Positions 1,718-55,733 of a stretch of DNA of 64,000 nucleotides are shown in pieces. The position numbers and the translations under genes were made by a program. Every line of letters starts with the position of its first letter. The first letter of the stretch is position 1. The notes under the pieces were generated by a model. That model ran no database searches, was not told where the DNA came from, and saw only the letters and a list, made by a program, of their open reading frames with translations. The stretch spans positions 14,694,001 to 14,758,000 of the forward strand of contig OX597829.1 in NCBI GenBank assembly GCA_951406725.2. Reading direction: 5' to 3'. This DNA comes from Octopus vulgaris. Taxonomy: Eukaryota.

Positions 1718-2501
1718 GTAAGTCTAAAAATTTCTAAGGCACTTGAAATACGTTTTCTTAAATGAATTTCATAGTTTTCACTTCTTTAGTGTTAAAGCTG
1801 TGCATACGAACATATGGAGGCAAATGTTGTGATTGAAAATATATTGTCCTAACACTGAATCGCTGGTTGGTGTCTCTCCTGTTTCAGATCTAGATTATTT
1901 CGTTTGTCCAAAACTAGCTGCAACCAAAACTCGCCTTGTTACGCTTTTTGACTCATTTGGTACATACTCCACCCACACACACACACATGAAGTACACACT
2001 TTACGTATGATGTGCTCTGATTAGGAACCATCAAGTGTGAACATTGCTGTGTTAGGTGTAAAGATCTTGCATTTTGCGGCAATATTTTCGTGCCGTTTTT
2101 TCAATGCTTCGTCAAACTGTTTATCGGATATTTTCAGTGTGTTCCCATCATTGGTGTTAGCGTTGTGCAACTACCAGATTTAGTATCTATAAAAATGGTG
2201 TCAGTGAGTGCCATGGTTTCAGATTGTATTATATTAATTGCTTATAACAACTAGCCATGTCGCAAACAGTAGAAACAAAATATTGTCTTATTTTCAAAGA
2301 AGGCAATATTCCTGATCAGCCAGAGGGTAGACTTAACCAGCGTAAGATTGCGTAGAGTATTATGATACCTCGTGCCATGGTCAACACAATAATTGTTCAA
2401 TTCACCAATAAATCAAAGGGACCAACATCATCTTGCTCAGGCTAATTTCAGCCTTCTGACAGTTGAGTTCAGATGGATTCTTTAAAATAATCCTGATTAT
2501 A

Positions 2502-2734
2502 TATTTCTTTACTGCCCACAAGGTGCTAAACATAGAGGGAACAAACAAGGACAGGCAAAGGGATTAAGTCGATTACATCGATCCCAGTGCGAAACTGGTA
2601 CTTTATTTATCGACCCCGACAGGATGAAGGGCAAAGTCGACCTCTGCGGAATTTGAACTCAGAACTTAACGGCAGATGACATACCGCTAAGCATTTCGCC
2701 CGGCGTGCTAACGATTCTGCCTGCTCGCCGCTTT
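2502..2734 (-). mobile_element. Full-length Meta-domain SINE (Tx1-like tail) with 16-bp TSD
   Basis: Pol III boxes, Meta core, tail ...TTGTGGGCAGTAAAGAAATA; TSD AATAATCCTGATTATA at 2486-2501 and 2735-2750. Confidence 0.92.
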
Positions 2735-8215: not shown

Positions 8216-8581
8216 TCCACCCCTTGCTAGTTGCATAATCAGCAACCACAAACCTAATATACCCACAACCCACACCCCTGCCATCAACACCAACACCACC
8301 AGCAGTAACAACAATAACAAAACAACAACAAACTTCGCCGAGGCGATAAAAGAAAAAAAACAATAGTATCGTTTACTGCACAGCAGATAAAAGACTCCAG
8401 AGCCCTAATCACCAAAGAAAACGGCAAAGTACAATTACACATACCACAGCACATACTGAATGAGGAAAAAAAGAAAACGATTATTTATAAAATAACAAAC
8501 AACACAACTAAAAGTCCAGGAAAAGCAAGCACGGACAAAATAGAAAAGTGCCTACGCCCCATCTGGGGATACAAGGAGTAT

Positions 8582-9823
8582 GTGACCTGGTCGAACAAGT
8601 TTGCCCACGTACACGTGGTTTTTCAGAATGAAGAGTTGGCAAAGCAATTCTCAACGCTAACTCTTCATTCAGATGAGCTAACAATGACACCCAGTTACCT
8701 TGGCCAGAAGGTGACAAAGGTCATTATCAATAATGTCCCGCAAATAACAACCACACTATGGATAACATCCGCCATATGCGTCGAAATGGAGGACATAAAC
8801 ATCCTGGAAATCACTGTTTCGAAACACAAGGACTGGGTGGGAAAGAGAATGGAGATTCTCTTTCACATAAGCCAAGACGACATTAACAAAATTCCCACCC
8901 ACGTACATCTTGCGGATGACCGCAAGTTGTATGTAGTAGTCGAGGGCAGAAGGCCACGCTGCTATACATGCGGCAATGAAACACACCACAAAAAGGAGTG
9001 CAAATCTAACGCGAAACAACAACAACAACAACAGCCACGGGAAAAACCACAAAAGCCAACATTATTGCCCACACCACAGTATGGACGGCTAATCAAGAAG
9101 CTATATTCAGAAATGCACGAAAAGCAACAAAGAACGGACCAACCCAACCAAACAACACCACCACCTGCGCCAAGACCAGAACCATCACCACCAACAACTA
9201 AACCAATTCCAACACCGAGAACAACAACGAAGAAGACAAGCACCAAGGATGTAGGAGAGACAGTCACCACACCAAACCCCCCCGCACCCCACCCCCGCAC
9301 ACCACAACAATATCTACAACCGCACAAACAGACCCAGATGCTTTACCCTTGCCCCCGTGTGATTCGTCAGACTTTTCATCTAACGATGAAAGTTCGACAG
9401 AATGGCAAATAGCCACCGGGGGTAAAAGAAAAAGATTTTTAAAATAACAAACAAGAAAACGCAACCAAAGCAGGGAGATATCTGAACCCTGAAAGCTTCA
9501 TACACAACCAAACAAGTACCAACACCACAAAAACACACACAATGCTATCAGCGATAGACACCAAAAACTCCAAACTAATGGAGTACATCACAGCCCACAC
9601 AAACATCTGTGAAGATGACTTCAAAACTAACAACCATCCACGCACTACACTACCCAAACACAAAATACTACACATCACACAAACACAACACCACACACTC
9701 AAAGCCTTCTTTCCAAATGCGGTTGGGGAGTTCCAAAAATACCTTTCACAACAACTCTATAAAAACCTCCTCCAAGACACATCAAAGGATGAGGAAGCCA
9801 GAACTTTCGACACAAGTAAGTAA
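8582..9823 (+). pseudogene. LINE ORF1 (gag-like), frameshifted
   Basis: VVVEGRRPRCYTCGNETHHKKEC = CX2CX4HX4C knuckle; Pro/Thr-rich linker; continues in 9542-9823. Confidence 0.8.
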
Positions 9824-9869
9824 CTCTCTGTACCTTCCTTTTTGTGTTTTAAAGCACACACCCCAATAG

Positions 9870-12800
9870 AATCAAGGTCAAGATTGGTTGTGTGAATGCG
9901 CGTGGCTTGGGGTCTCCTAGGAAACAAGGATACCTCCTAAATGACATCAAGTCACACGATTTGGGAATCATAGCCATAAGTGAGACCAGACTCCACGAGC
10001 CACGGGCCCTAAAGTCCATGTTTGGCGGACAGTTTACCATTTATTTTGCTCCCTGTCTGCCGAGGATGGGCGGTAGTGGCACCGCGGTACTTTTTCACAA
10101 GAGCCTGGATCTCGAAGTCAAGACGGTATTCGTAGACCCGGAGGGTAGACTGGTCGTTCTGGATGTCGACGGCAGCAATGGGTGCGCTTTTCGACTCCTT
10201 TCAATCTACGCACCGCCTTTAACAGGTCGGCCGGATTTCTTTCGATGTCTAGAAGTATTCCTGAGAACGTCTCGTCCTTTACTTTCAGTGGGGGTTGGAA
10301 TGCTACCTTGGACATGCATCTAGACTATGTGGGGTAGACAAAAACAGAAGGGGATGCAAATGCCACAGAGACCTGCTCAGACGATTCCAACTGTCTGACA
10401 GGTACCGACTCGACCACCCAAATGCACCAACGTGGATATGGAGCAACCGCAGTGGGTTTTCGAGATCGTATCTAGATAGGATACTGTGTAGGACAGTAGA
10501 CAGGGATAACTTAGGATGTCCACAATTCCACACAGTCAGCTACACGGATCACAAATTCGTGACATGTACGCTAGACTTAGATAAGGCAAATAGACAGGGT
10601 CCTGGTTACTGGAAACTGAACGCATCTTTCCCGTCCAGACAGGTTTTCAGAGACAGAATCAACACGTTAGTAAAAAGGGCTTTAACGGGAGCCATTGTCA
10701 ACAACAAATTGTGGTTCGCTCTCAAGAGAGCAGTAAAAGCGGAAGCAATTAGATATAGCAAGGCACTAGCCGTAGATAGAAATAGAGTAGAGGGTGAGTT
10801 AGTTAAGAAGTTAGAAGAGGCAATTAGAAGCGGCATCGCATCCGACGTTTTAGCGGTGAGGTTCGCCCTTGACCAACATTTCAACGCCAAACACGAAGGG
10901 TGTGCTGTCAGGGCTAGGATGCGTGCTCTAAGGATGGAAGGTGTTGGAGCCGCGAGGGAGGCCCGGGTGGCGGAGGCGCAGCAGGGCAACAAAGCCACCA
11001 TTCGGTCTCTGGTAGATGAACAAGGGTGCGAATTGCTCGAGCCCAGCAAGATGTGCGAGACATTTCAACGGCACTTTGCACGACTGTACGGGACGAGTGG
11101 TGAGCGTGAACGCAGGGTGGACTTCAGTGCCTACCTGCACAGCCTACTACGACTCTCGGCAAGAGAGGCAGAGTGCTGCGAAGGTGCCATCACGGCGGCG
11201 GATGTGCGGGACGCGATGGCAGAATGCTCGAGAGACAAATCACCGGGTTTGGATGGTCTGCCCTGCGAGTTTTACAATTGTATGCCAGACTTGTTTGGAG
11301 ACGTTTTGGCTGCGGTATACTGCAACTGGCAGCAAGACGGGAGCATACCCGGTTTTGTGGGTCCAGGAGCCGTAACGCTGCTGAAGAAAGATCCAAACAA
11401 GGGGAACATTATAGATAACTTTACACCAATCACTCTGCTCAATGCAGACCTGAAAATTTTGACAAAGGTGTTAGCCAAGAGGTTGGCGCTTGTCGTCGAG
11501 ATATTGGTCGACAACACACAAACGTGCGCCGTGCCGGGCCGGAGCATCCATGACAACCTCCATCTGGTGCGCTACATCATAGACAGAGTAGTTAAGGAAC
11601 CCGGCATGGATCAATCGAAAGCCTTCGATAGGTTAGACCATCGATACTTGGAGGCAGTCCTGAGAGCGGCTGGTTTCGGTCCCGTCTTCCGCGGCTGGAT
11701 AGCTTCCTTGTACAGAGGCATCTGTCCGGTAATTCGCGTAAATGGACATCTACCGAGACCTTTCGACATTGCACGTTCCGTCCGTCAAGGATGCCCCCTC
11801 TCAGCGCTTCTATACGTATTGACTCTTGAGCCACTACTGCGGAAGCTGGCGACTCTGAGGGGCATCTCGCGAGAATTGGGATGCGGGACGAGCGTGTCTG
11901 CATACGCGGACCACGTCACCGTCATAGTGTCAAGCCACGAGTACATCGAGCTGGTCGGTGAGACACTGAAAGACTACGAAGCGGTGACAGGAGCAAAAAT
12001 CAACCGGGAAAAGTCAGTGGGCTTGCGACTCGGCACCTGGAGAAGCAAGCCCATGCCGTCCACAGTACCTCCGTCATGGGACGCTGGACAGACGTCCCGG
12101 TTGAGTTGCTCGGGGTCTGGTTCGGTCCGGACCTTCAAATGGAGAAGAACTGGAACGAGATAAAGAGTAGGGTGGTCACTTTCGCCCGGCAATGGGCCGA
12201 GAGGAAACTGTCCCTAAAAGGTCGGGCGGAGGTGGCGAACACGTACATCGCGTCCATCGTCTACTACCGCCTGACCGTCGTACCTTGTCCCGACCCTTCC
12301 ATCGCCAAACTAGAACGCATTCTCTTCCGCTTCTTGTGGAAAGGATGTGTCCCGATGGTCAGGCGATCCATTTGCTGTCAACACCCGTTAAAAGGAGGAC
12401 TGGGCATGCCGTGGTTGATGATGCGCAGACACGCGCTGAGACTGCGACATCTCAGGCTCTATGTAGACGACGGTGAACAGGTGTGGTCGCCGTTTGTGAG
12501 ACACGCGTTCCCGCAGCGCGTCTCCATGACCGAACTGCAGTCGTGGATCAATAAGAGGCCGAGGAAATGCGAATGGCGCCGCGAGTGTCGCGTTGCTCTC
12601 AAGCAACTCTGCCGTCCCGTGTCGACCTTGAGTGACTTCAATACAACCAAAGCATTCTATAGGGGATTAGTGGAGAGGAGGTACGACGACGATCTTGGGG
12701 CAAACCTGGGCGTCGACGAGGAATACCTGACCCGCCTGTTTGAAACGACTTTCGGGCCGGGACCTATGGACAACTTCCAGAGATCCCTGGCCTGGCGGTG

Positions 12801-13230
12801 CTACCGAGAAGCGCTACCCGTTCGGGATAAGCTCTATAGGCATGGCTCGAGAAACACGGGGCCGACCTGCCCGAGATGTGGGCAGAGCGACGAAACCGCT
12901 CTGCACGCAATCGTGCAGTGTCCAACAATCTCCGACCTGTGGGCTTATGTCGAACGACTGCTGTCACGTGTGGGACGTGTCGGTTTATCAGCCGAGTCTA
13001 TCGTTAATATCGTCACGCCTCCTTCCTTCAAACGGGAACGAAGAGCTATTTTTATCATACTTGTGGCTATGGCGAAAGAATGTATCTGGTGGACGCGCCT
13101 GAAAGGATTAGAGACAAACACTTTCCTCTCTGGTCAATCTCTCATCAACTTCTTCAAGTATCACTTGAAGAGGAAAGTGAGAGTAGAGAGGCAAGTTTTG
13201 TCTAGTGAATGTTTTAAAAAAGATGGGTGA
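9870..13230 (+). pseudogene. LINE ORF2 (APE endonuclease, RT, C-terminal zinc finger), frameshifted near 10295 and 12070
   Basis: NARGL, SETR, IYAP, YLDRI, YTDH, GYWKLN, KSPGLDG, KAFD, RQGCPLS, YADH (dead YADD), CPRC..H....C; lacks 24 nt (GGALINL region) present in the second copy. Confidence 0.93.
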
Positions 13231-13702
13231 ATGTAGCAAAGATGGCACGTATGAATGACGAAGACACCTTGACTATGATTCTATGAACCGTAAAAATTAG
13301 TACAGAGAGTTGCTTATTTGCAAAAAAAAAAAAAAGAAATATAACATGTGACCGAGGTTACCGTGGTCTTTTCCGTAGGCTTTTCTTTCCACGGGTAAAC
13401 CTCACCTGTCATCCCCTTTACACTTCATATTGACATTTCTCTGATAGCGATCCCTATTGATCAATTTTTTCCTTTCCCTTCCCCTACCTTTTAAAAAAAA
13501 ATGTTATCCCCCCCTTTTTTGTCCTCTTTCTTTCCTTTTACGATCCCTTTTGATTGAAAACCAAACCCCCTTTTTTTACCCCCAAAAGAAAAGCTCTACC
13601 TTGTAATTTGTCTTGTCTGTGTGCAGCCCTGTGTGGCTAATAAAGAAACATATCCATCTATCTATCTAACTGTCTGTCTGTCTGTCTGAACTCTCACTTT
13701 AT

Positions 13703-24854: not shown

Positions 24855-25311
24855 AGGATCAATAATGTATTCATATAATATATAATATCTAGATGTGGAT
24901 GTGTGGTTAAGAATCTGGGCTTGTTTCTCGACTGAGTGAACTTGGGTATGGTGCCATGTAGTACTTTCTACTATAACCCCATGCTGACCATGGCACGGAC
25001 GTGGGGTTGTGGTAACAAGCTCACTTCCTAACCATGTTGTCGTATATTCAGCTACATTGCGTGGCTCTCTTTGAGCAAGTGCTTGCTACTGGAGCCACGT
25101 GCTGACCACTAGGACTTGTAAGTGGATTTCGTGGACGGAAGCTAAAGGAAGCTGTCTTTTTATCTTTTATCTATTAGTGTGCCCATGCTGGGGCACCAGT
25201 TTGAAGGGCTTAATCGAACAGATCACCCACAGTTCCTATTTTCTAAGTTTCATACTTGTTGGTTCGGTGTCTGTTGCCGAACCGCTAATGTAACAGTGAT
25301 GTAAACTAACC
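24345..25311. mobile_element. Cluster of old CORE-SINE copies in both orientations
   Basis: GCGGCCATGCTGGAGCACC tails, CORE motifs, tRNA heads. Confidence 0.7.
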
Positions 25312-25465
25312 TATTTCTTTACCACCCACAAGGGGCTAAACACAGAGGGGACAAACAAGGACGGACAAACGGATTAAGCCGGTTATATTGACCCCAGTGC
25401 GTAACTGGTACTTATTTAATCGACCCCGAAAGGATGGAAGGCAAAGTCGACCTCGGCGGAATTTG
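25312..25465 (-). mobile_element. 5'-truncated Meta-domain SINE fused to a Tx1-like LINE fragment
   Basis: Meta core and tail; begins inside the B-box directly after LINE sequence. Confidence 0.9.
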
Positions 25466-26789
25466 CAAATGGATCGCTTGACCATCGGGACGCATCCTTT
25501 CCACAAGAAGCGGAAGAGAATGCGTTCTAGTTTGGTGATGGTAGGGTCGGGACAAGGTACGACGGTCAGGCGGTAGTAGATGATGGACGCGATGTACGTA
25601 TTCGCCACCTCCGCCCGACCTTTTAGGGACAGTTTCCTCTCGGCCCATTGCTGGGCGAGAGTGACCACCCTACTCGTTATCTCGTTCCAGTTCTTCTCCA
25701 TTTGAAGGTCCGGACCAAACCAGACCCCGAGCAACTCAACCGGGCCGTACGTCCAGCGTCCCACGACGGAGGTACTGGTGGACGACAGGGGCTCAATTCT
25801 CCAGGTGCCGAGCCGCAAGCCCACTGACTTTTCCCGGTTGATTTTTACTCCTATCACCGCTTCATAGTCTAACAGTGTCTCGCCGATCAGCTCGATGTGC
25901 TCGCGGCTTGACACTATGACGGTGACGCCGTCCGCGTATGCAGACACGCTCGTCCCGCATCCCAATTCTCGCTGGATGTCCTTCAGAGTCGCCAGCTTCC
26001 GCAGTAGTGGCTCAAGAGTCAATACGTATAGAAGCACCGAGAGGGGACATCCCTGACGGACCGAACGTGCAATGTCGAAATGTCTCGATAGATGTCCATT
26101 TACGCGAATTACCGAACGGATGCCTCTGTACAAGGCAGCTATCCAGCCGCGGAAGACGGGACCGAAACCAGCCGCTCTCAGGACTGCCTCCAAGTATCGA
26201 TGGTCTACTCTATCGAAGGCTTTCGATTGATCCAAGTTGATCAGGGCCCCACCTATGCCAGGTTCCTTAACTACTCTATCTATGATGTAGCGCATCAGAT
26301 GGAGGTTGTCATGGATGCTCCGGCCCGACACGGCGCACGTTTGTGCGTTGTCGACCAGTTTCTCGATGACAAGCGCCAACCTCTTGGCTAACACCTTTGT
26401 CAAAATTTTCAGGTCTGCATTGAGCAGAGTGATTGATGTAAAGTTATCTATAATGTTCCCCTTGTTTGGATCTTTCTTCAGCAGCTTTACGGCTCCTCGA
26501 CTCACAAAACCGGGTATGCTCCCGTTTTGCTGCCAGTTGCAGTATACCGCTGCCAAGACGTCTCCAAACAAGTGTGGCATACAATTGTAAAACTCGTAGG
26601 GCAGACCATCCAAACCCGGCGATTTGTCCCTAGAGCATTCTGCCATCACGTTCCGCCCATCCGTCGCCGTGATGGCACCTTCGCAGCACTCTGCCTCTCT
26701 TGCCGAGAGTCGTGGTAGGCTGTGCAGTTAAGCACTGAAGTCCACCCTGCGTTCACGCTCGCCACTCGTCCCGTACAGTCGGGCAATGT
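25466..26789 (-). pseudogene. Second Tx1-like LINE fragment (RT domain)
   Basis: Near-identical to about 11075-12375; GGALINLDQSKAFD, RQGCPLS, YADG; 5' end abuts (TATC)n. Confidence 0.95.
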
Positions 26790-27904: not shown

Positions 27905-28175
27905 GCCTATCGTCTCTATACAAATGAGATTATCAGGACGTTGTCTCTGTACTCATCAAGCTGTCAACCCATCATCTCTGTACGCTCCAAACTGTCAGAA
28001 AAGCTTTTCTGTACACTTTAAATTGACAGTCCATTTCTTTTGGTAAACTTCAAATTGTCAGACTATCTCATCTGTACACAGGAAATTATTTGCCCATCAT
28101 CTCTGTATTCTTGAAATTATCAGACAATCGTTTCTGCGCACTTCAAATTGTCATTACCTCTCCTCTGTACTTACC
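27905..28175. repeat. Degenerate ~31-bp minisatellite (about 8 units)
   Basis: Recurrent TCTGTACAC-TTCAAATTGTCA with variable middles. Confidence 0.75.
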
Positions 28176-28775
28176 TATTTCTTTACTACCCACAAGGGGA
28201 CAAACACAGAGAGGACAAACAAGGACAGACAAACGGATTAAGTCGATAATATCGATCCCCAGTGCGCAACTGGTACTTATTTAATCGACCCTGAAAGGAT
28301 GAAAGGCAAAGTCGACCTCGGCGGAATTTGAACGCAGAACGTAGCGCAGACGAAATATCTATTTCTTTACTACCCACAAGGGGCTAAACACCAAGAGGAC
28401 AGACAAGGGCAGGCAAACGGATTAAGTCGATTACATCGACTCCAGTGCGTAACAGGTACTTATTTAATCGACTCCGGAAGGATGAAAGGCAAAGTCGACC
28501 TCGGCGGAATTTGAACTCAGAACGTAACAGCAGACGAAATACCTATTTCTTTACTACCCACAAGGGGCTAAACACAGAAAGAACAAACAAGGACAGACAA
28601 ACGGATTAAGTCGATTACATCAACCCCAGTGCGTAATTGGTACCTATTTAATCTACCCCGAAAAGATGAAAGGCAAAGTCGACTTCGGCGGAATTTGAAC
28701 TCAGAACGTAGCGGCAGACCAAATACTGCTAAGCATTTCACCCAGCGTGTTAACGATTCTGCTGCCTCGCCGCCT
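28176..28775 (-). mobile_element. Head-to-tail trimer of the Meta-domain SINE within one TSD
   Basis: Units 28176-28359, 28360-28543, 28544-28775; TSD TCCTCTGTAC[T/A]TACC at 28161-28175 and 28776-28790. Confidence 0.92.
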
Positions 28776-29244
28776 TCCTCTGTACATACCACGCTGATGG
28801 AAGAAAAGAAATTAGCTGTGTAATTCTTCAAGGTGATTTTAAAGTGTTGCATGTTGGGACGATTTACATCTTCGCCTATTTTGCGGTTGTTACTTGGTCC
28901 TTGATTTAATATTTGTATGTTTTGCGATCTTAGTTATCTTATAACATAATCCAGTAACCAGTCTCATAGAGTAAAATGAGATGCCGGATTGTTCAGTGTA
29001 CTAGAAATTTATTACTTCGTGCACGCAACTACAGGCACAGGCGAAGAGAAATTTCGTTTTAAATCACGTAAGTGCCCTATATGTATAAGCACGTCGGACA
29101 CTAACACACACTCACAATTAATAAAGAAAAAAAAAAGTAAAATACAAAGTATTAGGCGTGCTTCTGTTGGTAAGAAGTTTGCTTTCTCATTGCAAGGTTC
29201 TCAGTTCAGTTCCACTGCTTGCTGACATGGACAACTGCTTTCTC

Positions 29245-30393: not shown

Positions 30394-30440
<47 letters not shown>

Positions 30441-30442
<2 letters not shown>

Positions 30443-32775
30443 TGATTGATTGATTGATTGATTCTAGTTTCAGCTCATGAGCTGTGGCCATGCTGGGGCA
30501 CCGCCATTTGGTGTTGCTACTTGGTTTTACTTCACGAAAGCTTTTTAGCAACTGCCATTTGGTGCATGAGAGAGTTCGATGCAGCTGCCCTCATCTGCAT
30601 CTCCTGCCGTGAAGTTGGTTCATCTGGCACATCTGACAGGAAGAGATCCAGTTTCATTTTAAAGACATCTGCATCCACCCCATGCAAGTCTCTTAGGTTC
30701 TTCGGGAGGATATTGAAGAGCTGTGGGCGTCGGAAGCCCAGGCTATCACAGTATCTTGTCCTACATCTTGATGGCAAATTTGGAGTCCTAGGCACCACGC
30801 AGTGGCGCCCAGTTCTGGCATTTGTGTAACTCTCGATGCCAAAGTTTGGGACAAGTCCCTCCAGGATGTTCCAGATGTATATTATGGCATATCTTTCCCG
30901 CCTACGCTCCAAGGAATTTAGTTTTAATCTCTTGAGTCTTTCCCAGTAGCTTATACTCTGCATAGAGGCTATCTTCTTCGTGTAGCTACGTTGGATCGCC
31001 TCAAGTTCTGTGATCAACTTGACACTGGAGCAATAGTCAGAGTGGCTTAGGACAAGTGTCCTCCAGAGGACCATCATGGTTTCTTGTTCTCTTGTTCTAA
31101 AGGTTCTGAGAATCCATCCGGCCAGTCGTCTACATTTCATTGCCAATTTAGCAACATGTACACGAAAGGTTGCGTCATCACTCATGTAAATACCCAGGTC
31201 ACGCACTGATTGTGCCTCTGGGATTGCAATTCCTCCGGGTCCAGTGTATTCATTGGGTATTGCATTTAGTTTTGCATGCTGATAGTATAAAGCTTGAAAC
31301 TTTTCAGCATTGAACTGCATGCTATTCTTTTCAGCGCACTTGTATATTTTGTCCAGCTCACATTGCAGGCGTTTAGTGTCCTCAGGGTTCTGTATTGCCT
31401 GTGAAACTTTTGTATCATCTGCATAACTTGTGATCGTGACTCTCTGCGTGGCTGAGGGCATGTCTGAGAGGGCCATTATGAACAATAGTGGTCCCAAAAC
31501 AGTGCCCTGCGGAACACCGCTCACTATTTGCGTGTTAATGGAAGTGGCCCCATTGGCTACTACCACCTGACTTCTATCTTTCAGAAAGTCATGAAGCCAT
31601 TCTCCCAGTTTTCCAACTATGTTGAGATCACGCAGTTTGTGACATATCATTCCATGATCGACTTTATCAAAGGCCTTTGCAAAGTCGAGATATATCACTT
31701 CCACATTTGAGTGGTTGAGCAGTCGTTTCAGCACCCAATCATAGTGTTGTAGGAGCTGAGTTAAACAGCTTCTCCCTGGTCGGAAACCATGTTGGGTGTC
31801 GGGCAGCAAGTCATTTTCTTCAAGGAAGGTGATCAGTTTCCTTCTGACTATTCGTTCCATGACCTTGCTGATGTGTGAGGTCAGAGAGATAGGTCTGTAG
31901 TTCTTGGCCTCCGCTCTGCTACCTCCTTTATGAATGGGGCATATTTTACCTTCCTTCAGTTTTCTTGGAAGTTTGCCAGCTGCAAGGAAGCTCTGAAAGA
32001 GGAACTGCAGTGGTCTTGCTAGGACTCTCTTACATAATTTTAGGAGGATTGCTGGGAATCCATCGGGGCCAGTAGCTGAGTCTGTTTTCATTTCATCTAT
32101 AGCCTTGATTACATCGTCTTCCTTTATATTGATGTAATATATCGTCGCCGCCTCTGATTTTATATCTGCAGTGGTAAAGGAGTCAGTTGGATTGGTGATT
32201 TGGAGATGCCCTAGGGGTGGAGTGAAAACACTCTTGAATTGCTCATTCAGTATTTCACTTATTCTCATTGGATTTCCTGTGAGTGTACCATCCTTTTCAA
32301 GGAGTGGCCCTATCCTACAGTGCACCATAGCTGTTTCTTTGGCATACCTGTAGAAAGCTCTGGGGTTAGATTTTATGTTGTCTATAGCCCAGGCTTCTTT
32401 GTCTGCTCTTTCCTTTTCATGGGAGAGTTGCAGACAATTTTCAATTTCCAACAGTTTTATTTTCAGGCGGTACTTTTCACTGCTTTCAATTTGTTTGTTT
32501 AGGCGATTTGAAATTTTTGTACGCCGTCTCATTAAAATATTCCTCTCTCTGGGGATTTTGTTCCTGTGTACAGTGGCCTTTCTCTCTGGGACACATTTGT
32601 AGCATATGGCTTGCATTACAGACATGAATTGTTGAAGTTTCACTTCGATGTCTGGCGAGGAGAGACATTTAGGCTAGTTTTGTTTGAGGATCTCTTTGTT
32701 TGTTTGATACCAGTTTGCCTTATGGTAGTTCAAGCTGGAAAGATTCTGAGGGTTTCTTGTAGGCTGCATGTCCGT
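30441..32775 (-). mobile_element. 5'-truncated CR1/L2-group LINE with (TCAA)n tail
   Basis: 703-aa RT ORF, 3' stem-loop CAGCTC-AT-GAGCTG, microsatellite tail. Confidence 0.93.
30532..32643 (-). pseudogene. LINE ORF2 reverse transcriptase (open but lacking the endonuclease)
   Basis: GPDG, NYRPISL, QHGFR, DFAKAFDKV, SGVPQGTVLGPLLF, YADD, RDLG, SLERRR motifs. Confidence 0.93.
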
Positions 32776-36342: not shown

Positions 36343-36568
36343 TATTTCTTTGCACAAGATGCTAAATATAGAGGGGAAAAAAGGACAGACAAACGGATTG
36401 AGTCGATTATATCGACCCCAGTGCGTAACTGGTACTTAATTTATCGACCCTGAAAGGATGAAAGGCAAAGTCGAACTCGGTGGAATTTGAAACCAGAACG
36501 TAACGGCAGACGAAATCCGGCTACAGCATTTCGCCCGGCGTGCTAACGATTCTGCCAGCGCGCCGCCA
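36343..36568 (-). mobile_element. Meta-domain SINE inserted in (CCTA)n
   Basis: Head, core and tail present; CCTA repeats on both sides. Confidence 0.9.
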
Positions 36569-37140: not shown

Positions 37141-37149
<9 letters not shown>

Positions 37150-37372
37150 CTGCCCACAAGGGGCTAAACATAGAGGGGACAAACAAGGACAGACACACGG
37201 ATTAAGTCGATTACATCGACCCCAGTGCATAACTGGTACTTAATTTATCATCCCCGAAAGGATGAAAGGCAAAGTCGACATCGGCGGAATTTGAACTCAG
37301 AACGTAACGGCAGACGAAATACTACTAAGCATTTCGCCCGGCGTGCTAACGTTTCTGCCAGCTCGCCGCCCT
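37141..37372 (-). mobile_element. Meta-domain SINE with TSD TTTTACGTATATATA
   Basis: Full-length copy; the flank is repeated near 37073 and 37372. Confidence 0.9.
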
Positions 37373-38951: not shown

Positions 38952-39183
38952 TATTTCTTTATTGCCCACAAGGGGCTAAACACAGAGATCGCAAACAAGG
39001 ACAGACAAAGGAATTAAGTCGATTACATCGATCCCAGTGCGTAACTGGTACTTAATTTATCAACGCCGAATGGATGAAAGGCAAAGTCGACCTCGGCGGA
39101 ATTTCAACTCAGAATGTAACGGCAGGAGAAATACGGCTACGCATTTCGCCCGGCGTGCTAACGTTTCTGCCAGCTTGCTGCCT
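38952..39183 (-). mobile_element. Meta-domain SINE inserted in (TATG)n
   Basis: Full-length copy; TATG repeats on both sides. Confidence 0.9.
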
Positions 39184-39604
39184 TTATTTATGTATGTATG
39201 TATGTATGTATGTATAGAAAAATACATGAAGGATAAAGATGTATTATCTGCGATTTATTCATCTTACATGCGTTTCGAATAGCCTAGACTCACCCAAGCG
39301 TTGAACATTTCAACATGTATATTTAATCGATCCTTTATCTGATCGACTAAAATGCCAGAGAAAGATGGGAGTTAGGTTCCACTGTATTCTTTTCAAAGCT
39401 AGAACGTTTCCGTCAAGACTAAAACTTTTGGAGGCCATGCCTCAGTATGACAACAGTCCAAGTACAGAAACCAATGAGAGATAAATGGTAAACAGTGTAG
39501 CAAATACCTGAACCGTAATCAAGATTTGAATTGCCAAATAGGGATTCTAATGCCTCAGTTTCTATGTCTTTATTTCTAGTTATCTTTAAATATTTCAATA
39601 CTTT

Positions 39605-47667: not shown

Positions 47668-48005
47668 TGCTTAGCGATATTTCGTCTGTCTTTACCTTTT
47701 GAGTTCAAATTCTACCGAGGTCGACTTTACCTTTCATCCTTTCGGGGTCTATAAATTAAGTACCAGTTGCTTACTGGGATCGATCTAATCGACTGGCCCC
47801 ATCCCTCAAAACTTCTGGCTTTGTGCCTAGAGTAGAAAAGGATATATCGTCTCGCTCTTAACGTTCTGAGTTCAAATTATGCCGAGGTCAGCTTCAATTA
47901 TAATTTTTTTTCAGGCTCGATAAAATAAATACCACTCAAGAACTTGGATCTATGTAATTTACTTACCCCTCACCTAAAAAAAACTGGTGGCTCTATGTCC
48001 TTATT
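47668..48005 (+). mobile_element. Meta-SINE dimer (alternative tail)
   Basis: Second unit starts at 47841 GATATATCGTCT directly after the first tail. Confidence 0.8.
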
Positions 48006-48204: not shown

Positions 48205-48579
48205 CACACACACACACATACGGTGCATCAGCATGACCGCAGCTCTGAGCTGAAAATAGAAAAAAAAATATATATTCAGTATACGTTTTACTTTGGTTTA
48301 GAAAATCGCAGAGAAAACGGTGCGAACGGACAGACATATTGAGGTGCTTACGAACATAGATTTTTACTACGAATTCTGCGTTGATCTCTTAGGGATAATT
48401 TAGAACTAGCATTTATATATATATATATATAACCCCACACGGACTCAACACAGCTCCCTCCTCTTAGTGACTGCGCTCCACTTCTCCCCACTAGCATCTT
48501 TTATTTTTTATTTATTATTTATTATTTATTTTTTATTTTTCATTTTACATTTTTTATTTTTTATAATTGTCCTTATGCA

Positions 48580-51500
48580 GTCACACACAATATATACTCA
48601 CGTACCCACGAACACACCTACTCCCAACACACCACACACACACAACGTAGATGCACATGTACGCATACATACTTCCACACCTATACACACACCCACACCC
48701 TCACACACCCCCACGTGCACACACACACATGCCTGTGCACACACACCAGGGACAATACTCATACAGATACGCACACTCCTATAAACACCTAGCTGAGACG
48801 CACAGACACACGCACGTAAGCGCACACACGCACACAAGCACGCGCATGTACCTTACGTCCACACAACTCCACCCCCATCCATACATACACACACACGTAC
48901 ACACATACATGCACGCATACATACACACATACAAACATACATACACACACATACATACACACATACACGCACATGCACACATACACACACATACATATAC
49001 ACAGATACATACACACACACACACACACACACACATATAGATACATACATACATACATACACACACATATACGTATACATACATACAAACAAACATACAT
49101 ATACATACTTACGTACACACACGCACATACACACATACATTACATATATACACATACATACACACATACACACATACATACGCACATACATACACACACT
49201 TACATACATACATACATACATACATACACACACACTTACATACATACATACACACACACATACATACACATACATACACACACATACACACACATACATA
49301 CACACACATACATACACACACATACACACACATACATACATACATACACACATACTTACTTACACACACGCATACATATACATACATACACACACATACA
49401 CACATACACACATACATACATACACACACGCATACATACACACATACATACATAGACACATATATACATACACACACACATTTATATACATACATACATA
49501 GAGACACACACATGCACACATACACGCATGCACACATACATACATACACATACATACACACACACATACACACACACCCATACTATACACACATACACAC
49601 ACATACACACATACATACATACACACACGCGTACATATACATACATACATACACATACACATACACACACACACTTACACACATACACCCGTACATACAT
49701 ACATACACACACACACTTACACACACACACATACATACATACATACTTACACACATACACACATGCATACATACACACACGCATACATATACATACATAC
49801 ATACACATACACACACGCATACATATACATACATACATACACATACACACACACATACACACATACATACATACACACACATACATACATATATACACAC
49901 ATACATACACACATACATACACACATACATACATAGATACATACATACACACACACACACATACACACACGCACGCACACATACATACATACACACACAT
50001 ACATACACACACACGTACATACAGACATCCATACACACACACACTTACACACATACATACACACACATACATACATACATACATACACACACATACACAC
50101 ACATACATACATACGCACATACATACACACACATATACACACATACACACACATACACACACATATATATAGATACATACACACACACATACTCACATGC
50201 ACGCATGCACACATACATACATACACACACACACATACATACACTACATACATAGATACATGCATACATACACACACACACATACATATACATACATACG
50301 TACATACACGCACATACACGCACATACACACATACACGCCTGTATAAATACATACATACACACATACGTACATACATACATACATGCACACACACACTTA
50401 CACACATACACACACATACATACGTACGTACATACATACACACAGACATACATACACACAAATTCATACATACATACACACACATATACGCATACATACA
50501 TACACACACGCATACATACACACATACACACACACATACACACACACACATACACACACACACCCGCATACATATACATACATACATACACATACACACA
50601 CATACACACATACACACACATACATACACACATATATACATACATAGATACATACATACACACACACGCACATAAATATACATACATGCACACACACATT
50701 CATACATACACGCAGGCACACATACATACACACACACATACACACACACACATATACACACATACACACACATACATACATACATACATACACACACACA
50801 CATACATACACACATACACTCACATACACACATACATACATACACACACGCATACATTTACACACATACATACACATACACACATACACACATACAAGCA
50901 TACACACACATACGTACACACATACATACATAGATACATACATACACATACATATACATACATACATACATACACACATACATACACGCATGCACACATA
51001 CATACATACACATACATACACACACATACATACACACACACTTACACACATACATACATACATTCATACACACATATAAACATATAAACACACATATAAG
51101 CCTCTACATTGTACACACACGCACGCATATATACATACATTCACTCGCACGCACGTACACACATACACATTTACATATATATACTATACACGCACACACA
51201 CATACGCACGTACAAACACACACAAACTCACATACACACCGACAGATATACATACACAATATACACCTTGCCGCGCACGCACTCATACACATAAACACAT
51301 ACAAACGCACCCATACACGCACACACATACACGTTACATACTCACACAAATGAACCCACACATACATCCCTACACACACACACGCACACATACACTAGGT
51401 TACGCACAGTTACTCGCCACACACCCAAACTCCACGCATACACACACGAACACACACACACTACAAACAGCACACACTACAAACAGCACACACGCATGAT

Positions 51501-51710
51501 ACATATACTTACACGCACACATATATACCCCTTTGTTTTTTGACCTGGTTTTGACCTGGCTGGATACAAACAAGTGCCACTCCTTTATGACAGCTAACTT
51601 GCCATGCCTATTATTCACCATACATACACACACACACACACACGCACACACGTACAAACACACTTGTCGTCCTTGCACACACACACACACATACGCACCT
51701 ACACACAATC
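48580..51710. repeat. ~3.1-kb compound (CA)/(TACA) microsatellite block
   Basis: Direct reading. Confidence 0.98.
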
Positions 51711-54453: not shown

Positions 54454-55733
54454 CTATAGAATGGTACTCCCGAGTGGAATCTGGATGTTACCCCATCCGG
54501 ATTTTCGGTTGAGAGTGGGTTTGTATTCTTGTATACAGACAGCTTCAGTGACCTGTCTCAGCATTGCATCAGTGGGATGTGTGGATAAGATGTTGAACTT
54601 AAGTCTCCCTAAGGAGCCCTTGTGGCAGTCTAAAGCATGCTGATAGAAGATGGAGTTTGGCTTCTTTTTAATGTAGTTGTCCAGGTGTTCTTTGAACCTA
54701 TCATTGATACACCTAGAAGTCTCACCTATGTATGACTCTGGGTTAGTCGCGCAAGCTCCTTCTTGGCACTTAATTTGGTATACAGTGCTCTTGGTTTTGC
54801 AGTTCACAAGTGGGTTTGTAGAACATACTGCACAATTATTTTGACATGTGAATCTATCAAATGGATATGATCTACATAATACAGATTTGATAGTTGTACC
54901 TGTCTTTTCTACAACCTTGATCTTAAGGCCAGTTGTGTGCAGGATTTTCTTGAATGCCTTACATAATTCGTTCTTAGGTGTGGCGTCAACAAACATTACA
55001 CAGTGAAATTTCTTCTATCAAGTATTGGTTTTATTTCTTTTGTTGGTGTCTCTCTCTAACCTATTTCGGAACTTGTTGCGGTACAGGGGGGCATATACCG
55101 TTTCGTCATCTCTTAGAATGCGTTCGAATCTTGTTTTCGCTCCTTTGTACACTCTGATTCTCTCATATTGTGTGTATCCGGAGCGTTGCATTCGGAATAT
55201 GAAGTGCTGGATGTGTTGTTGTCGTTCTTGTGGTTGGCATAGGCGAGATACATTCCTCATTACTCTAACGAAGTCTGCCACCAGGATGTTGAGCTTGGTA
55301 GTACTCGACATCGCTGAGTCACTACGGGTTACCAGTGGATTAGCCATAGGTTTACAATAGTGTGAGTGGAGCATACAGGGTTTAGCAGTTCCGTTAACCA
55401 TAGTATTTTCCATCCACAGCTCAGTATCTAGGACAGGTAATCTATTACTGGGGTGTTTAGAGGGGTAGTCCACGGTAACTTTTATACTGCTATGAATAGA
55501 GTCAGCTATGTGTTGTATAGCTGTCATCACCTGTTCTTCATTTAGTAGAGAGTCTGTCTCTGTGTCTGTATTATTATTACATTTCACGACAAGGTTAATG
55601 TCATCAACATATCGAGAGTACATAGTGAAGTGGATGTTACGGGTCGCTTGGCAATGTTTAAACTGTCTGTCTCACCATACCATGAAGAGGTTTGCAACAC
55701 CACCGGCTATCCTTACTCCAATAGCACCGCCTT
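54454..55733 (-). pseudogene. Penelope-like (Neptune-type) RT C-terminal half + GIY-YIG endonuclease
   Basis: GGAIG, SRYVDD, LPVLD, Cys-rich linker, TVYQIKC..YIGETSR..RFKEH, EAVCI..KPTLN. Confidence 0.92.

Follow-up and report, generated by a model that had tools for sequence, protein, structure and literature searches.

Within one 64,000-nucleotide stretch of octopus DNA, here called the window, a LINE copy and several copies of a SINE end in similar sequences. This locus raises the question of whether the two tails are related by descent and, if so, which LINE moves the SINE. A preliminary description had proposed a partnership between this particular LINE, taken to be Tx1-like, and a Meta-domain SINE. 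The features of the window are collected in Table 1.

Table 1. Repeats and related features of the window
Feature	Position	Strand	Remarks
LINE copy of the L1/Tx1 group ('family A')	8217..13650	+	Host site (TATC)n microsatellite
ORF1 region of this LINE	8318..9412	+	CCHC knuckle present
ORF2 of this LINE	9853..13285	+	In three frames; Pfam: endonuclease PF03372, RT PF00078, zf-RVT PF13966
LINE 3' tail common to the SINE	13599..13650	+	Predicted upper stem 13625-13638; lower stem pairs UCU/UGU with the AAUAAAGA end
SINE copy	2501..2734	-	tRNA-like head, UCON3 body, Tx1-type tail; exact 16-bp TSD
SINE trimer	28172..28776	-	One full unit and two starting at SINE position ~48; one bracketing TSD of 15-16 bp with one mismatch
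SINE copy, tail damaged	36353..36567	-	Within (AGGT)n
SINE copy used as query	37141..37372	-	Within (AT)n
SINE copy with the end nearest the tail first quoted	38953..39184	-	Within (ATAC)n
Older SINE subfamily copies	47668..47980	+	Tail differs and has a CTTGT-type hairpin, head and body as in the SINE; another at ~1283-1500
Family-A RT fragment joined directly to SINE 3' part	25309..26786	-	RT part 25465-26786; SINE positions ~80-230
Second LINE	30535-32673	-	RT and Tx1-like ORF2 share 23% identity; probably CR1-like
End of second LINE	near 30440-30470		By eye resembles the tail of the other abundant SINE: a conventional LINE-SINE pair
ORF with weak GIY-YIG match	54454-55014	-	E 1e-4; probably Penelope-like element
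C/A-rich tandem repeat region	48574-51710		Long; strong GC skew

The flagged LINE and its target

The LINE copy starts near position 8217 and is probably 5'-truncated. Its ORF1 region gave no match in Pfam, and its ORF2 is disrupted by two frameshifts. The latter is ~75% identical at the amino acid level to an intact ORF2 of 1149 aa elsewhere in the genome, whose best match among solved proteins is human L1 ORF2p (E 1e-58; R2 reaches only 1e-21). Based on its ORF1, APE endonuclease, RT and C-terminal zinc motif, with an RT nearest that of L1, the copy can be assigned to the L1 group (L1 and Tx1). None of the homologues is a named Tx1 protein (one homologue, at 69%, is labelled Argonauta hians), and the RT tree holds no named reference; 'Tx1-like' is the limit of the evidence for placing family A within the group.

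In all 30 of the best genomic copies the tail stops at the identical endpoint and poly(A) is absent. TATC repeats are found at 98 of 114 family-A 3' ends and at 23 of 28 5' junctions, counts in which some loci overlap and not all are independent. Their presence at the 5' junctions indicates that TATC is the target of the element and not a part of its tail. Family A is target-specific, and a preference for a target sequence is typical, though not exclusive, of the Tx1 clade; the habit fits that clade as it is characterised in the available text of PMC4494074.

The family is abundant, with 2749 candidates at first look, and further blocks of the 3' UTR, beyond the tail, are conserved between A families. 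One young TATC-targeting family has the intact 1149-aa ORF2 and is 79% identical to the window LINE (loci L232-L256, L322, L323 and L326). Its 25 intact copies diverge from their majority sequence by a median of 0.15%, and the family has likely been active recently. The tail of this family holds GTATTTCGTC, a ten-letter sequence also present at the self-insertion site of the SINE.

Structure and insertion of the SINE

The SINE is ~230 bp long and consists of a tRNA-like head, a UCON3 body and a Tx1-type tail; six tail-bearing copies lie in the window. It is short, dispersed, non-coding and flanked by TSDs, as are tRNA-derived SINEs. Between 54 and 72 tailed copies, depending on stringency, were counted in 80 random 10-kb stretches (800 kb), from which roughly 190,000-250,000 copies are extrapolated genome-wide. 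The head begins with an A-box-like motif and contains GTTCAAAT, with the strict B-box pattern unmatched, and resembles the heads of hagfish UCON3 SINEs. ARAGORN and Rfam detected no tRNA, and Rfam returned nothing else of relevance.

The Meta domain assigned to the body in the preliminary description gives way to another. When motifs from the supplement of PMC7245038 were matched within one mismatch, three UCON3 motifs occurred in 65, 65 and 52 of 70 SINE copies (shuffled sequences: 1, 0 and 4), and two Meta motifs, short sequences and not the full alignment, in 0 of 70, the same as in shuffles. Three bivalve Meta motifs were likewise at chance level in five window copies. The published UCON3 alignment fits the body, which by eye agrees with UCON3_CM at 38 of 47 letters. 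The body is thus a UCON3 domain of ~50 bp, downstream of the head. In a weak test for a Deu/Nin domain, two short BivaMD-SINE1 Deu motifs were at chance level in the same number of window copies, but the body is accounted for by UCON3.

Both ends could be defined in 62 of 74 SINE units. Among these closed units 27 carry a TSD (median 16 bp, range 9-20), five lie in low-complexity DNA and 30 have none, and TSDs were found in 0 of 396 mismatched flank pairs. The TSDs of 15-16 bp first described agree with this median; within the window they are clean in just two copies (2502-2734 and the trimer 28172-28776), with three others in microsatellites. The target of the SINE is biased, with N-R-T-A-T directly after the element end AAAGAAATA. 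The same motif occurs inside its own head at positions ~17 and ~48, which would explain head-to-tail SINE arrays. Arrays of up to six units are bracketed by single TSDs, and the junction from the tail to position 48 has 20,820 exact occurrences genome-wide (control, 0). Self-nesting at head positions ~48 and ~17 is seen as arrays with 184- or 217-bp units.

Median divergence is 5.6% in 72 random SINE copies and 16.7% in 40 copies with older tails. Compared with Tx1 tails, these older tails score at background. When contigs from four runs with four organism labels are compared with the SINE, their loose ends include older tails and the self-junction, with no LINE junction among the matches listed.

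The shared 3' tail

The tail common to the SINE and the Tx1-like elements comprises 45-58 letters at the exact 3' end. Both ends read as they had been quoted, with an AGCC/GGCT stem in the LINE at 13599-13650 and GCCC/GGGY in the SINE. Window-type LINE ends share a mean of 36 identical letters in 47 columns with SINE ends. The alignment, which the preliminary description had proposed as a check, is significant: the window copy scores 37, compared with a mean of 15 and a maximum of 30 for dinucleotide shuffles, none of which reached the observed score in 2000 tries (p = 1/2001). After removal of the last 14 nt (the AATAAAGAAA part), p is 0.054 for the window copy, 0.018 for its family and still 0.0005 for sister families. 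Since families C, D and E and the sister A subfamilies match the SINE tail without AATAAAGAAA, the doubt raised by the trimmed window copy is removed. As judged from sequence comparison, the tail homology between family A and the SINE is real.

Scores against SINE ends are 70 for family C, 68 for E, 51 for the sister A subfamilies, 50 for D and 39 for window-type A, with a background of about 15 for shuffles and 12 for the other RT-bearing LINE of the window. Identical columns number 47/55 in family C, 36/43 in the sister A subfamilies and 30/33 in D. The A-sister, D and E sets were chosen with patterns containing SINE-like letters, so that their scores are inflated; the clade of the A-sister and D sets was read independently, from coding sequence. 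The sister A subfamilies account for 460 exact pattern matches (control, 0). A random 800 kb of the genome contained 56 tail-like sites, made up of 54 SINEs, one family A and one family C.

A closer tail in another LINE clade had been named at the outset as an observation that would speak against the pair. None of the clades outside the Tx1-like radiation has a better match to the SINE tail within the sample examined, and the best matches with visible coding sequence are all members of that radiation.

Sister families of the radiation

Family C was first met in the random sample and carries the CTTGT (CUUGU) loop of the SINE in its tail. Its ORF1 shares 29-34% identity with the ORF1 of the window LINE (E 1e-17 to 1e-21) and is followed by the 3' UTR. 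In 30 loci and seven longer stretches, the interval from ORF1 to the tail holds no Tx1-type ORF2 on the same strand, and the family can be classed as HAL1-like, with ORF1 present and ORF2 absent. Its TSDs are mostly 15-24 bp, by a method that differs from that used for the SINE, and its median divergence is 5.7% among 30 top hits, a biased sample. The element is ~1.9 kb long with 641 first-look candidates, has a target that begins GAG and is sometimes found in tandem (L285-L321).

Further families were found with a 21-nt core pattern that excludes the SINE and family C. It has 720 matches, and the 41 distinct places examined (the first 30 and 14 picked by eye, three overlapping) comprise four of family D, two of family E and a remainder of altered or truncated SINEs. 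Family D bears an RT; its ORF2 is 54-62% identical to that of family A, and 27 letters are identical to the SINE tail. Taken together, families C and D have 27-30 consecutive near-identical letters at the SINE's distance from the 3' end. The RT phylogeny suggested as a check bears out the grouping in part: in a tree of 35 rows D groups with A at 99/99 support, but named Tx1 references are absent from it. The tail and RT homology of family D indicates that the tail motif persists across lineages ~50% identical in RT. In three of four D copies the element is followed by the same tRNA-head site of the other abundant SINE, with one 13-bp TSD (L341, L355, L357 and L358).

No coding sequence was seen upstream of the tails of families E and F. 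The latter is represented by one copy with an AGGC-CTTGT-GCCT hairpin (L164, minus strand, near 9280-9327), which bridges the older SINE tails and the Tx1-like tails. Related tails elsewhere include that of a Tx1-like copy before (ATT)n (L225:1000-1150) and one interrupted by a SINE (L166:2150-2250). Around a short family-E insertion (L359:5600-6900) lie two interleaved satellites, one with A/T-rich units of ~15 nt and one with a ~29-nt unit.

The predicted tail hairpin

The predicted minimum-energy structure of family A, family C and most SINE ends tried is a two-tier fold. In the window LINE the upper stem is formed by AGCC (13625-13628) and GGCT (13635-13638) around the loop CTGTGT. In the predicted lower stem the AAUAAAGA end pairs with an upstream UCU-N-UGU; this stem is nearly invariant and so says little. 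When anchored on the loop, the upper stems differ in sequence with pairing kept: AGCC/GGCT in A, GGCC/GGCT in C, GCCC/GGGY in the SINE and TGCC/GGCA in D, with TGGC/GCCA and AGGC/GCCT in older SINE tails. The loop is 6 nt long in family A and 5 nt in the SINE, and in the sequence alignment the two stems stand one column apart. In the A register 86% of cells are paired, three pairs are changed on both sides, and the percentage paired is above all slid controls. Covariation in the SINE/C register is not above shuffles, being reached by 81 to 144 of 500. The stability of the hairpin is ordinary, with z from +0.1 to -2.1 in six of six folds.

Which LINE moves the SINE

Based on these observations, the SINE is probably mobilised, guided by its tail, by a lineage that is sister to the flagged LINE and likewise Tx1-like. 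The proposed partnership is supported for the Tx1-like radiation by tail matches and coding sequence, but not for the flagged family, which differs in target, loop length and score. Family C cannot move the SINE, because it lacks ORF2. The SINE does show a biased target and TSDs of ~16 bp; this insertion signature is, however, unlike those of the families available for comparison, C inserting at sites that begin GAG, A at TATC and D in the head of the other SINE. This leaves yet another sister lineage as the likely carrier. Ages had been suggested for comparison: median divergence is similar in the SINE (5.6%) and family C (5.7%) and is 0.15% in the young A family, which fits a carrier that predates the youngest A family.

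Under this reading an ancestral SINE with tRNA head and UCON3 body would have acquired its tail by template switch or recombination, the donor being an autonomous element or its ORF1-only derivative. The ORF2p of the sister lineage would recognise the predicted stem-loop of the tail, and the endonuclease of that ORF2p would set the target. In L2 LINEs the tail is bound by the EN-RT linker (PMC4176376, available text). As in the preliminary description, we infer stringent tail recognition by a Tx1-like enzyme. An autonomous LINE combining the SINE's hairpin and target was not found by exact-match patterns, which miss diverged families; the matches examined were SINE variants, SINE heads and unrelated flanks, and in one match an A-type tail leads into the head of a SINE. 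Nor does an autonomous LINE occur at any of the 80 internal SINE sites in the random sample.

As an alternative, the SINE may have taken its tail from a Tx1-type element without the tail being read as a structure. Priming would then depend on a relaxed enzyme or on a short stretch of pairing between the RNA end and the nicked target, and the tail would be a relic or a signal for RNA end formation (AATAAA). The ordinary fold energies are consistent with this, as are the share of AATAAAGAAA in the match, on which the window copy depends for significance, and the way in which the final letters of each family run into its own target motif. However, pairing is kept across the differing stems of the loop-anchored families. 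In C, D, E and the A sisters a pyrimidine-rich core lies upstream of the hairpin, and its match still reaches p = 0.0005 when the AATAAA part is left out. A poly(A) signal would have no obvious function in a Pol III SINE, which also counts against this alternative. On balance, capture of a tail that is not read as a structure seems unlikely.

Slightly less plausible still is mobilisation by the flagged TATC-targeting family A itself. This family has a significant tail match, is abundant, has young intact relatives and has sister subfamilies that reach the 36 identical columns given above. Its ends have nevertheless the lowest tail scores among the families compared, and the 6-nt loop differs from the 5-nt loop of the SINE. 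TATC repeats, so frequent at A ends (98/114), occur at 0 of 62 SINE units, and a pattern joining a family-A anchor to the SINE hairpin has 0 matches. The disagreement in target, loop length and tail score suggests that family A is probably not the mobiliser. Two loci bear on this possibility and count in its favour. One is a SINE dimer whose last unit has the family-A hairpin and then TATC repeats (L091:1440-1900, minus strand), the sole exact case in the genome, which shows what family A would do. The other is the LINE-SINE junction at window position 25465, where the RT fragment is 92.6% identical to the main LINE copy, with a TATC repeat upstream and no TSD seen. A one-step template switch was considered for this chimera and rejected for want of a bracketing TSD; a deletion or a recombination event is no less likely.

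Chance likeness or convergence of low-complexity T/C-rich sequence with a poly(A) signal, for which the compositional bias of the tail and the marginal trimmed window copy might speak, is largely refuted and very improbable, given 27-30 near-identical consecutive letters in C and D at the same 3' distance, 0 of 2000 shuffles reaching the observed score, and a single exception by eye (score 31) to SINE- or Tx1-tail likeness among the matches scoring at least 30 in 20,000 random 75-mers.

Comparison with known systems

The assignment to a Tx1-like sister lineage invites comparison with known LINE-SINE pairs. L1-group elements are generally regarded as relaxed in their choice of RNA, but exceptions have been published for maize/sorghum and Chlamydomonas (PMC3472496, available text). 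The survey of SINE/LINE pairs there lists 58, of which just three have L1 tails, from maize and Chlamydomonas. The stringent L1-clade pairs described are ZmSINE2/ZmSINE3 with LINE1-1_ZM and SINEX-3_CR with L1-1_CR (available portions of PMC3472496 and PMC3747384). As in the octopus, an L1-group LINE and a tRNA SINE share a 3' tail, in their case the last ~45-50 nt; the accessible accounts describe a hairpin with compensatory changes and a stringency that is inferred, not assayed. The octopus elements differ in being animal, target-specific and without poly(A), and in that families with different targets share one tail design. In the accessible part of a later SINE review, Tx1 is mentioned only outside the table of pairs.

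Crocodilian SINEU is similarly ascribed to Tx1-clade machinery, and has a target preference and tandem insertions that sandwich a TSD. In contrast to the octopus SINE, it is tied to that machinery by shared target alone and ends in poly(A), and no LINE shares the 3' end of SINEU-1 (PMC4494074, available text). The octopus SINE is linked by tail homology, and its missing piece is a target-matched LINE. The (TC)n of Kibi, the (TTC)n of Koshi and the (TTCC)n of crocodilian Tx1 LINEs are, as described in the same text, single microsatellites to which an EN-RT LINE is nearly confined, like family A. The target of family A is (TATC)n, and the family is likened to these LINEs by habit. Family C is like HAL1 in having ORF1 alone and a LINE-type 3' end (available text of PMC5753468 and PMC5786205), but is of Tx1-like origin and has the tail nearest that of the SINE.

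UCON3-domain SINEs also have a tRNA head, a UCON3 body and exchangeable tails. Their reported hosts are chordates, a nematode, a coral and xenacoelomorphs; the tails are of RTE or CR1 type or unknown, and the available text of PMC7245038 names neither a mollusc host nor an L1/Tx1 tail among them. MetaSINEs likewise have a tRNA head, a conserved central domain and variable tails, and their reported partners are Nimb and CR1-Zenon (PMC4824008 and PMC11481361, in part). However, the Meta domain, 66 bp directly after the tRNA head, is absent from the octopus SINE. For mollusc SINEs in general the partners given in the accessible reports are CR1, CR1-Zenon, L2 and Nimb. The openly accessible literature, Repbase excluded, yielded no tail-sharing pair of an animal L1/Tx1 element and no mollusc UCON3 SINE.

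Significance

The known L1-group pairs that share a tail come from plants and algae, and the octopus genome offers an animal case. This genome has two dominant SINEs, and a likely driver clade can be named for one of them; UCON3 SINEs are extended to molluscs. Direct tail-swap tests become possible in a genome where intact ORF2 copies are young, sister families differ in tail and target, and a SINE passenger is present in huge numbers. More tentatively, and with somewhat less than even confidence, the poly(A)-free two-tier hairpin of the radiation could be an address label carried alike by LINEs, ORF1-only half-LINEs and a SINE of ~200,000 copies. Which carrier is used would depend on the length and sequence of the loop, and tail swaps among carriers, with the CUUGU loop kept, would have let the UCON3 SINE lineage survive. 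Whether the poly(A)-dependent, relaxed RNA choice of L1 arose from a stringent ancestor is treated as an open question in the available text of PMC3472496 and PMC4176376. If the address-label reading is true, the octopus would serve as a present-day animal model for stringent recognition, out of which the relaxed behaviour of mammalian L1 is proposed to have come.
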